16,223 nucleotides of DNA from an uncultured archaeon. GTDB lineage: Archaea > Asgardarchaeota > Lokiarchaeia > Sigyniarchaeales > SOKP01. The notes under the pieces were generated by a model. The model was not told the origin of the DNA. It did not search any database and saw only the letters and a program-made list of their open reading frames with translations. This document shows, in pieces, positions 9,014 through 13,005 of this stretch (its first letter is position 1; every line of letters starts with the position of its first letter). The stretch is taken from positions 1 through 16,223 of the forward strand of contig CAZGJX010000094.1 of assembly GCA_964525635.1 (NCBI GenBank). Direction: 5' to 3'. The position numbers and the translations under genes were made by a program.

Positions 9014-9030
9014 AAGAATAAGATATATAC
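9014..9030 (+). promoter_or_regulatory. Probable BRE/TATA promoter of the tRNA gene
   Basis: Purine-rich AAGAATAAG followed by ATATATA about 30 nt upstream of G9058. Confidence 0.5.
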
Positions 9031-9057
9031 ATTAAAAGAAAAAAAATATTATACTTC

Positions 9058-9265
9058 GGAGGGATTACCGAGAAAAGCAATTATATAAATTTTTTTCGGG
9101 ATCCTGGTCAAATTTAGACTTGAACAGTAGAATAAGGCCAAAGGTCGCTTAAAAAAGGGTCAAGACCGATTAAAGGTGCTGGACTTAAGATCCAGTGGCG
9201 AAGGCCTTCGTGGGTTCAAAAAAGTTCTGAGAAATCCTCATTCTTGGAGAATCCCACTCCCTCCA
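9058..9265 (+). tRNA. tRNA-Leu(TAA): tRNA-Leu(UAA) with three introns; exons 9058-9072, 9103-9111, 9174-9220, 9252-9265 (85 nt mature, CCA not encoded)
   Basis: Acceptor GGAGGGA/TCCCTCC (7/7 pairs) with discriminator A. D-arm ACCG-AG|CCTGGTCAA|A-GGT. Anticodon arm CTGGA-CT-TAA-GA-TCCAG (TAA at 9186-9188). Long variable arm GGCGAAGGCC. T-arm GTGGG-TTCAAA|T-CCCAC. Each insert has BHB-like geometry. Confidence 0.9.
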
Positions 9266-9558
9266 TATTTTTCTCATTAGTAAATGATCATTCTATTACT
9301 TTACAAATTCATTTAATAGTAATTATTATTTTTTACTATAAAAATTAACAACTTTTTCCTTTAAATTTATAAAATATTTATTGTATCAATTAAACGTATT
9401 GTTAAGTAAACAGATAACTTTAAAAGTGGAAATTATATAGTTCATATAAGACTAAGAATATAAATTTTTGATTAATAAAAAAAAAAACAACATTTATTAT
9501 TAAAATAATTAATAAATTAGATTTTTTATTTAGGAATATAAAAAAGTTGAGTTAAAAT

Positions 9559-10320: not shown

Positions 10321-10383
10321 TTTATTATCCATAGACATATTTAACAAATTTTCTTTTTTTCTTTGAAATACTTACAAAAAATC

Positions 10384-10401
10384 AGATCTCTCGTGAGATC
10401 T
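10384..10401. promoter_or_regulatory. Perfect inverted repeat AGATCTC-tcgt-GAGATCT in the cellulase leader
   Basis: 7-bp arms with a 4-nt spacer, about 40 nt before ATG 10441. Confidence 0.4.
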
Positions 10402-10440
10402 AAAGACATTTTTATAGAAATAATAAAAAAGTGTAAAATT

Positions 10441-13005
10441 ATGTCAAAAAATAAAACAAAAAACCTATATAGAATTCTAAGTATTAGTCTCCTACTTTTT
10501 GTTCCATTGATTTTTGGTTTTTCAAATAGATTTATCAATATTAATTCAACCAATACTAATATTCCAATCATATCTGCTGTTGCACCACCTCCTCCCTTTC
10601 TTCGAGGACTGAATTTTGGCAATACATTAGATGCACCAAATGAAGGAGATTGGGGGATTGTTATGCAAGAAGAACATTTCGATCTTGCCAAAGAAGCTGG
10701 TTTTGAATGTATTCGGATTCCCGTTAGATTTTCTACTCATGCAGAAGATACAGCTCCATATACAATTGATCCTGTTTTTATGGAAAGAGTAGCTTGGGCA
10801 GTTGATAATGCTTTATCTAGAGATATGATCGCAATCGTGGATATGCATCATTATGAAGAAATTCATACAAATCTTGCTGGACATAGGGATAGATATCTTG
10901 GAATGTGGGTACAAATTGCAGAATATTTTCAAGATTATCCTGATGATCTTTATCTTGAATTTTTAAATGAACCATATGGTGATATTGATATTGGTGTATG
11001 GAATGAATTAGTTCAAGAAACATATGATATATGTAGAGCAACGAATCCAACAAGAACACTAGTAATCGGAGGTCAGGCTGATAATATATTTCAAATGGAA
11101 TATTTAGAACTTCCTGATCCTAATGATAGAAACATTCTTACCACCTTTCATTTTTATACTCCATGGCAATTTGCTATCACTGGAGATATAGATTGGTATG
11201 GTACTGATGAAGAAAAGGCCGTAATTGAATCTGAGTTGGATTTTGCGGCTCAATGGGCTGCCGATCATAATTTACCAGTATTAATGGGTGAGTTCGGATC
11301 GAATCCATTAAATGAAATGGATCAAAGAACGAATTGGGGTAATTTTGTTAGAGAAGCTGCTGAAGCTAGAAATATCTGTTGGACTTATTGGCATTTTCAA
11401 GAATTATATGACCTTGAAGCAGAGGCATGGCATCAAGAACTATTGGATGTACTAGTTCCTGAACCTCCTTCACCTCCTCCTAGCACGCCAACGGGTTTAA
11501 CTGCAGATGCTTTAAGTCCGACCAAGATAGATTTGAATTGGAATGATAATCCAGAATCATCAGTTACAAGATATAATATTTATCGTAGTACTACAAGTGG
11601 ATTTACACCAGATCAAAATAATCTCATAGATGAAGCAGAGACTAGTGATTATTTAGATATTGGACTTAATCCAGATACAATATATTATTATAGAGTGACT
11701 GCGGTAGATGCCTATCGACAAGAAAGTGATCCTTCAAGTATAGTAAGTGATACAACACTTTCACCAGATTCTAATCCCCCAGCAACGCCTACAGGTCTTT
11801 CGACTACTGCAACCAGTTATAATCAAATTGATCTTAATTGGAATGATAATTCTGAATTAGACTTACTAAAATATAGAATCTATCGAAGTACTTCAAGTGG
11901 ATTCACACCTGATAACAATAATTTAATATCAGAAACATTATCTAGTGAATTTATTGATTGGAATCTGAATTCTGAAACCACCTATTATTATAGAGTTAGT
12001 GCTGTTGACGATAGTAATAATGAAAGTCCAGCAACATCTCAACAAAGTGCAACAACTCTCGTAAGACCTGCGGCAAATATAAGAGTACAATATAGGTGTG
12101 GAGATACAAATGATGAAACTGCTCAAGTTAGACCATATATAAATATATACAATGATGATGCTGAAGATCTGCTATTTTCAGATATTACTGTAAGATATTG
12201 GTTTGATTCAGAACATCATTACAGTAATATTCTCAATGAAATTGATTACGCTGTTGTTGGATCAACTAATATCCAATCAACTTTTGGATCAGAGGGAGAT
12301 TATGACTATCTTGAAATTGGATTCGATTCTTCTTTAGGAACTGTTTATTCAGGATCAAATACAGGTGAAATCCAAAATCGATTTCATACATCGGATTGGC
12401 TATTATTTGACCAAACCAATGATTATTCATTTGATCCTTCGAAAACTAGCTATGCAGATTGGGAAAGAGTAACTGCCTATTATCAAGGTGCAATAGTCTG
12501 GGGTATAGAACCCTCTGGAGAGGATTTAACTCCACCAACCATCACAAGTCCAAATGATATTAATTACATTGAAGGAGATACTGGAAATAGTATTAGTTGG
12601 ACAGCAAATGATATGAATCCAGCAACTTATACAATAACGATAGATGGTACTCAAGTTCAGAGTGGATCATGGAATTCTGGTGTACCAATTAATATTAATG
12701 TTGATGGATTAAACTTAGGTAGCTATACATATATAATAGTAGTCTCTGATCAATCTGGACTCACAACAACAGACAGTGTAATTGTTACAGTATCCCAAAG
12801 TGCTGAATTCCAAAATGGTGATGTGAATCATGATGGTAATGTTGATATCATTGATGCTCTTATGATTGCTCAATATTATGTTGGTCTTGATCCTCAACCA
12901 TTTTATCCCGAAGAAGCAAACGTGGATGATAGTGGAGCTATTGATATTGTTGATGCATTAATGGTTGCCCAAGCATATGTGGGCCTAATTGAACTACCTT
13001 CCTAA
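10441..13005 (+). CDS. Secreted modular endoglucanase: GH5 (Thermotoga Cel5A-like), 2x FN3, CBM3, Ig-like, dockerin
   Basis: Signal peptide. GH5 ~10600-11460: RGLNFGNTLDAPNEGDWG, RIPVR, DMHHY, NEP acid/base Glu at 10969, HFY, GEFG nucleophile Glu at 11290. FN3 repeats start at 11476 and 11776. CBM3 ~12076-12513 (VQYR..TVRYWF..EIQNR..QTNDYSF..VWGIEP). Ig-like 12523-12795. Dockerin 12817-13002 (GDVNHDGNVDIIDA..ANVDDSGAIDIVDA). ATG 10441 is preferred to TTG 10363. Confidence 0.93.
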   Translation: MSKNKTKNLYRILSISLLLFVPLIFGFSNRFININSTNTNIPIISAVAPPPPFLRGLNFGNTLDAPNEGDWGIVMQEEHFDLAKEAGFECIRIPVRFSTHAEDTAPYTIDPVFMERVAWAVDNALSRDMIAIVDMHHYEEIHTNLAGHRDRYLGMWVQIAEYFQDYPDDLYLEFLNEPYGDIDIGVWNELVQETYDICRATNPTRTLVIGGQADNIFQMEYLELPDPNDRNILTTFHFYTPWQFAITGDIDWYGTDEEKAVIESELDFAAQWAADHNLPVLMGEFGSNPLNEMDQRTNWGNFVREAAEARNICWTYWHFQELYDLEAEAWHQELLDVLVPEPPSPPPSTPTGLTADALSPTKIDLNWNDNPESSVTRYNIYRSTTSGFTPDQNNLIDEAETSDYLDIGLNPDTIYYYRVTAVDAYRQESDPSSIVSDTTLSPDSNPPATPTGLSTTATSYNQIDLNWNDNSELDLLKYRIYRSTSSGFTPDNNNLISETLSSEFIDWNLNSETTYYYRVSAVDDSNNESPATSQQSATTLVRPAANIRVQYRCGDTNDETAQVRPYINIYNDDAEDLLFSDITVRYWFDSEHHYSNILNEIDYAVVGSTNIQSTFGSEGDYDYLEIGFDSSLGTVYSGSNTGEIQNRFHTSDWLLFDQTNDYSFDPSKTSYADWERVTAYYQGAIVWGIEPSGEDLTPPTITSPNDINYIEGDTGNSISWTANDMNPATYTITIDGTQVQSGSWNSGVPININVDGLNLGSYTYIIVVSDQSGLTTTDSVIVTVSQSAEFQNGDVNHDGNVDIIDALMIAQYYVGLDPQPFYPEEANVDDSGAIDIVDALMVAQAYVGLIELPS

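Follow-up and report, generated by a model that had tools for sequence, protein, structure and literature searches.

In three complete Asgard genomes, 92-95% of the tRNA genes carry introns, often several to a gene and often at non-canonical sites (PMC11291895), and a census of 90 Asgard genomes records up to five inserts in a single gene (Goswami et al. 2026, bioRxiv 10.64898/2026.10.13.758758). As set out in the census passages that deal with gene finding and splicing enzymes, inserts in the D arm are the class that tRNAscan-SE misses most often, and a permissive two-subunit form of the splicing endonuclease EndA is widespread in Asgard genomes (Goswami et al. 2026). An (alpha-beta)2 EndA equipped with an L1 loop has been found in Asgard archaea and tied to relaxed BHB splice motifs (Kaneta et al. 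2018, PMC5829648). The two accounts of interrupted Asgard tRNA genes (PMC11291895; Goswami et al. 2026) centre on Atabeyarchaeia and Jordiarchaeia/Freyrarchaeaceae, with Freyrarchaeaceae, Jordiarchaeaceae and Atabeyarchaeaceae as the intron-rich families, whereas the host considered here is most likely Loki-type. In the Thermoproteales, up to three BHB introns per tRNA are on record (Sugahara et al. 2007, 2008; reviewed in PMC4033280 and PMC4090602), and nested introns with an obligatory splicing order have been reported for some archaea (as cited by Soma et al. 2013, PMC3728597).

The gene described here occupies positions 9058-9265, on the plus strand, of a stretch of 16,223 nt referred to as the window, which is contig C94 of a genome of 4.45 Mb in 245 contigs rated 100% complete. 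It is very likely to be a functional chromosomal tRNA-Leu(UAA) gene of an AT-rich, Loki-type Asgard archaeon, with a precursor of about 210 nt that contains four introns, all away from position 37/38, and that is spliced by EndA and RtcB to an 85-nt class II tRNA. The published interrupted Asgard tRNA genes, in the accounts given of their structure (PMC11291895; Goswami et al. 2026), share with it an Asgard host, several non-canonical introns of about 16-35 nt per gene, D-arm inserts missed by annotators, BHB or relaxed BHB boundaries, a two-subunit EndA and repeated intron gain along the tree. The window gene is a well-supported new example of a kind already in print, heavily interrupted Asgard tRNA genes having been published in 2024 and 2026. 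Modestly new are a pair of abutting introns, the order-wide age of the D-loop intron and a co-resident intron-less paralogue. In the passages of the published Asgard accounts that treat intron arrangement, neither tandem nor abutting introns are mentioned, nor is an intron-less paralogue in the same genome, and the census, according to its description of scoring, enters each contiguous insert once, so that an abutting pair of this kind would count as one.

Joining 9058-9072, 9103-9111, 9174-9220 and 9252-9265 on the plus strand gives an 85-nt class II tRNA, which ARAGORN calls tRNA-Leu(taa). These coordinates, the exons and their product had been put forward in a preliminary description of the DNA and are correct to the base; the absence of any intron at 37/38, also claimed there, is borne out, the sites being 15/16, 21/22 and 59/60. 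Its count of three introns holds in so far as there are three insert sites, with a D-arm insert among them, relative to compact Leu tRNAs, but its treatment of the 62-nt insert as one intron gives way to two abutting BHB introns, and hence to four intron units. The four exons measure 15, 9, 47 and 14 nt, with inserts of 30, 62 and 31 nt between them. GC content is 56.5% in the joined 85-mer against 27% in the window, the exon pieces being GC-rich and the inserts AT-rich. As drawn by ARAGORN, its cloverleaf consists of a perfect 7-bp acceptor stem, a 3-bp D stem, as is typical of class II tRNAs, a 7-nt anticodon loop CTTAAGA with U33, a long variable arm, a 7-nt T loop TTCAAAT and the discriminator A73. 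It is collinear without gaps with the uninterrupted tRNA-Leu(CAG) of the same genome (contig C35; 58.7 bits with the Rfam tRNA model), 60 of the 85 bases being identical. The preliminary description had also remarked that UUA is heavily used in the window, and this codon indeed accounts for 164 of the 324 Leu codons (51%) in its ORFs.

Exon 1 (9058-9072, plus strand) supplies tRNA positions 1-15, that is the 5′ strand of the acceptor stem, U8-U9, the 5′ strand of the D stem, A14 and G15, and is identical in three relatives of the same genus. Exon 2 (9103-9111, plus strand) holds the D-loop positions 16-21, including G18 and G19, in 9 nt that are nearly invariant in the family. Exon 3 (9174-9220, plus strand) covers positions 22-59, with the 3′ strand of the D stem, the anticodon arm with UAA, the variable arm, the 5′ strand of the T stem and most of the T loop, and exon 4 (9252-9265, plus strand) adds positions 60-73, comprising the end of the T loop, the 3′ strands of the T and acceptor stems and the discriminator A73, with no encoded CCA. 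An A/T-rich, TATA-like box at 9020-9031 (plus strand), about 30 nt upstream of the tRNA 5′ end, is a putative archaeal promoter, and the block is partly kept in the three genus relatives. A run of five Ts at 9268-9272 (plus strand), just 3′ of the gene, is a likely archaeal transcription stop within a T-rich stretch kept in the genus. Two further upstream sequences conserved in the genus, TTGAATAATATCA and GTTTACTAAAT, were considered as a tRNA promoter motif and rejected: they have 8 and 7 copies in the genome, respectively, and the other copies of TTGAATAATATCA do not precede tRNA-like sequence.

On the unspliced DNA, ARAGORN finds no tRNA, even in intron mode, and Rfam returns no match at its gathering threshold, so that the gene escapes these finders, as had been predicted for it. 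A permissive Rfam scan picks up exon 3 alone, as a partial tRNA match of 17.3 bits against the RF00005 gathering threshold of 29 bits; a gene that carries four inserts is expected to miss that threshold on genomic sequence. Other weak Rfam matches within the introns (SNORD52 at E = 0.36, on the intron 3 minus strand; algC at E = 2; snR82 at E = 3.4) are far below gathering and are attributed to chance, and no C/D-box RNA is evident on the plus strand.

Evidence that the joined exons form the unit under selection comes from relatives. Forty related genomes were searched with the locus, and the 85-mer was aligned to each match by a purpose-written spliced aligner that uses sequence similarity only, and no structure. 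Three genomes of the genus have the same four exons, with introns at the same sites, and their exons are identical at 84 of 85 positions, the sole change lying in the loop of the variable arm. Identity within the genus is 60-67% for intron 1 (18-20 of 30 nt, its hairpin being kept), 68-84% for intron 3 and 58-75% for the 60-nt flanks. Once the inserts are removed, ARAGORN reads a tRNA-Leu(UAA) of 85-86 nt at each of the 20 family loci (19 relatives and the window gene), with no cloverleaf lesion in any copy; over the order as a whole, it calls tRNA-Leu(UAA) at 25 of the 26 loci with a UAA anticodon other than the window gene, after removal of the aligned inserts. Among the 16 distinct 85-mers from the 20 family loci, which made up the covariation set, five of the seven acceptor pairs show changes on both sides (pair 3-82, for instance, occurs as A-T, T-A and C-G), and these five have no mismatch; two T-stem pairs and all three pairs of the variable arm covary as well, with 0-1 non-pairs per position. 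Exon 4 pairs with exon 1 in the acceptor stem and with exon 3 in the T stem, so that the covariation of these stems argues for selection on the joined product.

The inserts themselves come and go at fixed points. Introns 1, 2a and 3 are missing in many relatives, whose exon sequence runs uninterrupted at exactly those sites; most other genera are without introns 1 and 3, and several relatives are continuous through both of these sites, among them locus L009, which has the D-loop intron only. Presence and absence at such exact positions, read from the alignments, is the pattern expected of introns. In the tRNA-Leu(UAA) genes at three loci, L004 (G002:C50), L020 (G022:C17) and L118 (G004:C1), an extra intron of 28-30 nt follows mature position 52, within the variable arm, and in L004 and L020 this intron has a perfect central helix, TGGC/GCCA, of class HBh′. 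With the variable-arm intron of L004, genome G002 has five intron units in its tRNA-Leu(UAA) gene. The intron states at this one locus across the family constitute a compact natural record of intron gain and of growth at a fixed site, in a series that begins with a 16-nt mini-intron, passes through an intron of 28-38 nt and ends with an abutting pair of 62-65 nt, the introns at 15/16, at 59/60 and in the variable arm being present in some states and absent in others.

Splice motifs were assessed by coding the Marck-Grosjean rules for BHB geometry in the form in which the 2026 Asgard census gives them. Under these rules, a 3-nt bulge on the 5′ side is preceded by four exon bases, which pair with the four intron bases that precede a 3-nt bulge on the 3′ side; in each bulge the cut is placed behind the second base, and the outer helices have at least 2 bp. 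The coding was checked on the canonical intron of the tRNA-Leu(UAG) on contig C9 of the same genome. With intron length held fixed, the register given in the preliminary description is the best BHB register at each junction, and the helices claimed there, ACCG/CGGG, GGTC/GATT and TTCA/GGAG, are all present with 3-nt bulges, the first and third with an A.G mismatch. Intron 1 (9073-9102, plus strand, 30 nt, position 15/16) is bounded by a relaxed BHB, with three of four pairs in its central helix, bulges AG|A and AT|C and a 4-bp stem in the intron hairpin. Intron 3 (9221-9251, plus strand, 31 nt, position 59/60 in the T loop) is likewise relaxed; its central helix also has three of four pairs, the T stem serves as a 5-bp outer helix, and there is a 3-bp helix on the intron side. 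Two relatives, L006 and L008 (G57), have the full helix at the intron 3 site, TTCG/CGGA, with 4/4 pairs. Among 20000 shuffled versions of each intron, the observed central and intron-side helices were matched by 44 for intron 1, by 364 for the whole of the 62-nt insert and by 169 for intron 3, and the BHB match is far above chance.

Letting each cut move on its own gives introns 1 and 3 registers with 4/4 pairs, at the price of a D loop longer by 2-6 nt or a T loop longer by at least 1 nt. Preference goes to the boundaries given above: with them the loops are as long as in relatives without introns 1 and 3, and standard tRNA numbering does not allow for more nucleotides between G15 and G18. 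The cuts of intron 1 could move symmetrically by 1-3 nt, as had been anticipated, and the register of intron 3 is ambiguous to a like extent. The acceptor stem and the helix of intron 1 are seen in the minimum free energy fold of the whole precursor (Turner energies), from which the BHB helices of introns 2 and 3 are missing, and the BHB conformers of introns 1, 2a and 3, evaluated locally, lie about 4.5-10 kcal/mol above the local minima.

The 62-nt insert in the D loop splits at 9141/9142 into intron 2a (9112-9141, plus strand, 30 nt) and intron 2b (9142-9173, plus strand, 32 nt, position 21/22), which adjoin with no exon between them and are each a complete hBHBh′. The central helix of intron 2a is GGTC/GGCC, with 4/4 pairs, and both of its bulges are AA|A; that of intron 2b is GGTC/GATT, also with 4/4 pairs, accompanied by AA|A bulges and a 4-bp intron-side helix GGTC/GACC. 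No equally good split was found in 20000 shuffles of the insert. All nine relatives with a D-loop insert of 46-65 nt split likewise, with GGCC or GGCT as the central partner and varying bulges at the internal site (AAA, ATA, AAT, TTA, AGA and TTT). Relatives with inserts of 16-38 nt are without the 2a split, inserts of 28-38 nt corresponding to 2b alone, and in two relatives the insert is a mini-intron of 16 nt, whose GACC is the segment that pairs with the exon.

The alternative that survives best, and which we regard as possible but doubtful, is that the 62-nt insert is one intron removed in a single step, its internal GGCC-AAA-GGTC site being an evolutionary leftover that is never cut. Taken by itself, the whole insert does qualify as class hBH, having GGTC/GATT as its central helix (4/4 pairs), a pair of AAA bulges and an exon-side helix of 2 bp, and endonucleases of the Aeropyrum pernix type cut hBH and bulge-helix-loop substrates (PMC3241643); it has, however, no intron-side helix at the 5′ bulge (h′ = 0), while each of its halves is a complete hBHBh′ of a quality that no shuffle attained. 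Selection cannot separate the one-intron from the two-intron route, as both give an identical mature tRNA, yet the internal site is kept in the nine long-insert relatives despite sequence change, and the short inserts are the 2b half alone. Two abutting introns are therefore the reading adopted here.

The two units can be removed in more than one way. The 3′ end of intron 2a imitates the end of exon 2 (GGCCAA compared with GGTCAA) and the 5′ end of intron 2b imitates the start of exon 3 (AGGTC compared with AGGTG), so that either unit could be cut first or the pair removed in one step, and every one of these D-loop splicing routes leads to the same mature tRNA. In the unspliced transcript, intron 2a has its full hBHBh′ and intron 2b has three of four central pairs and its 4-bp intron-side helix, with the end of 2a as a stand-in exon; removal of 2a raises the central helix of 2b to 4/4 pairs. 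The motifs of introns 1 and 3 draw on separate segments of exon. The ordered multi-site splicing claimed in the preliminary description is accordingly not required, every unit having a BHB-like motif in the unspliced transcript, and an order is still possible. In the nested archaeal introns, as they are cited by Soma et al. (2013), two units likewise share one site in the precursor, and the removal of one improves the motif of the other, as it does for 2b here, but 2a and 2b abut without either enclosing the other, and their order is not obligatory.

A D-arm intron is present in all 27 tRNA-Leu(UAA) loci examined, and a core within intron 2b, GGGTCAAGACC, occurs exactly or with 1-2 changes in 26 of them, with a weaker remnant in the remaining one (L114), across at least three families of the order. 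From this distribution the D-loop intron is old, and 2a a later addition at the same junction; the core is old and order-wide, with introns 1, 2a and 3 as later, lineage-restricted gains. Intron 2b (9142-9173; orthologs L002-L020 and L111-L119) is nearly as conserved as the exons, with a change at 1 of 32 nt in the genus, and far more so than introns 1 and 3. Such conservation suggests that its structure is tightly constrained, or that the intron or its excised form has a function.

The genome contains a second gene for the same tRNA. A compact, intron-less tRNA-Leu(UAA) of 81 nt at C146:7382-7462 (minus strand) scores 57 bits with the Rfam tRNA model and is also called by ARAGORN. It sits in an array of five intron-less Ser/Leu tRNA genes (G000:C146:5782-7574, L024/L025), an array kept in all three genus relatives and weakly matched outside the genus; the 311-nt stretch that holds the paralogue is about 80% identical within the genus, and the ARAGORN read-outs of the array tRNA-Leu(UAA) differ at several positions among the genus copies. 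The preliminary description had asked whether the window gene is the only Leu-UAA gene of the genome and had counted an intron-less copy elsewhere as half of what would speak against it. That copy exists, and conservation argues against the window gene being a pseudogene. A second Leu(UAA) gene of the window type was not found in the genome, the similar locus at C9:19681-19826 (G000, plus strand) being a tRNA-Leu(CAA). This tRNA-Leu(CAA) gene has two anticodon-loop introns, after positions 32 and 38, and is miscalled by ARAGORN as tRNA-Phe(aaa) with a 47-nt intron.

Given the intron-less paralogue, the window gene may not be essential. It is nonetheless quite improbable that it is a decaying relic and that the compact array copy, present on C146 and kept in the three genus relatives, is the working tRNA-Leu(UAA). 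The near-invariance of the window gene's exons (84 of 85 positions identical across the genus, against 58-84% for its flanks and for introns 1 and 3) argues that selection maintains it; its stems are kept by compensatory changes with 0-1 non-pairs among the 16 distinct sequences, none of the 20 family copies has a cloverleaf lesion, and of the two genes it is the array copy, at about 80% over its 311-nt stretch, that is the less conserved. A chance resemblance or an assembly artefact, for which the blank ARAGORN and Rfam searches of the raw DNA are the sole point, is hardly credible in view of the same four-exon arrangement in three independently assembled genomes of the genus, the variant forms in 25 of 26 further loci of the order and the rarity of comparable motifs and splits in the shuffle tests.

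Two more compact arrays, with 22 tRNAs between them, lie on contig C54 (19098-20390 and 25170-26273, L023) among LRR and WD40 genes, and are almost wholly intron-less, ARAGORN placing short introns in two genes (Phe and Arg-UCU). Together, the C146 and C54 arrays come close to a full decoding set; most of the other tRNA genes of the genome are interrupted. An interrupted gene and an intron-less paralogue within one genome offer a natural comparison for the use of interrupted tRNA genes.

How intron 2a came to adjoin intron 2b, each imitating an exon end required by the other, can be addressed by a speculative proposal to which we attach rather little probability: a BHB intron arrived precisely where the endonuclease already cut, for instance when cleavage and ligation ran in reverse and the product was copied into DNA. 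As a further part of this proposal, the genus draws one tRNA from two sources, the interrupted chromosomal gene and the intron-less array gene, which might serve different conditions or cover for failures of splicing. If true, insertion at an existing cut site would be a concrete clue to the unsolved origin of archaeal tRNA introns.

The enzymes that such a gene would call for are encoded in the genome. Two tRNA_int_endo genes are present, for a 202-aa protein on contig C18 and a 204-aa protein on contig C105. The C18 protein matches the A. pernix EndA catalytic subunit (3P1Z_B) over its full length (E = 4e-37) and keeps the equivalents of K44 and R46 in the loop, of the triad Y125/H133/K164, and of R157 and W183, residues whose roles in the A. 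pernix enzyme have been described (PMC3241643; Hirata et al. 2011). In the C105 protein, Phe and Ala replace the catalytic Tyr and His, a loss that points to a structural subunit. The resemblance to A. pernix EndA (PDB 3P1Z) extends from the residues of the catalytic subunit to a second, catalytically dead one. Judged by these residues, the EndA of this genome has the (alpha-beta)2 architecture with the L1 broad-specificity loop, and the retention of the loop K/R and of the triad agrees with the broad-specificity endonuclease that the preliminary description had inferred to be needed. RtcB is encoded on contig C119 (E = 3e-166). The relatives of the EndA alpha subunit are in MAGs nearly all labelled Promethearchaeota (Asgard) or Promethearchaeia, Loki_b31 among them, with some Hod-, Hermod-, Thor- and Odin- labels, which upholds the Asgard lineage earlier thought probable; a Loki-type host is the most likely placement.

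In the mechanism we propose, a precursor of about 210 nt would be transcribed from 9058-9265 on the plus strand, and each intron would fold with the four exon bases that precede its 5′ cut into a BHB or relaxed BHB. The two-subunit EndA, with the C18 protein as catalytic and the C105 protein as structural subunit, would cut within the bulges, RtcB would ligate the exons into the 85-nt class II tRNA, and CCA would be added after splicing, giving a tRNA presumably used in translation.

The accounts of the Thermoproteales introns cited above describe a system alike in its non-canonical sites, including the D and T arms, and in its (alpha-beta)2 EndA with a Crenarchaea-specific (L1) loop. They also describe one that differs in belonging to another phylum with thermophilic, GC-rich hosts, and in having related introns that recur in many tRNA genes, a sign of transposition. 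A search of the present genome with blastn-short for copies of the four introns returned AT-rich chance matches of at most 19 nt and one imperfect 23-nt match of intron 1, and with no intron copies in the genome, transposition in the style of the Thermoproteales was discarded.

Across the whole genome (G000), the Rfam tRNA model detects 47 tRNA genes, 27 of them in compact arrays and about 20 dispersed. With about 20 dispersed genes detected in a genome rated complete, many further tRNA genes are probably hidden by multiple introns. Inventories made with standard tools therefore undercount tRNA genes in Loki-type Asgard genomes, which, like the published Atabeyarchaeia and Freyarchaeia ones, hide essential-looking tRNA genes behind several non-canonical introns. 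At G000:C42:11878-12458, ARAGORN calls a tRNA-Gln(ctg) with a 491-nt intron; the call may be spurious, or the tRNA gene may contain a large insert. Downstream of the tRNA-Leu(UAA) gene in the window, at 10363-13005 on the plus strand, an ORF of 880 aa contains GH5 cellulase, fibronectin type III, CBM3 cellulose-binding and type I dockerin domains, a cellulosome-style architecture that is unusual in an archaeon.
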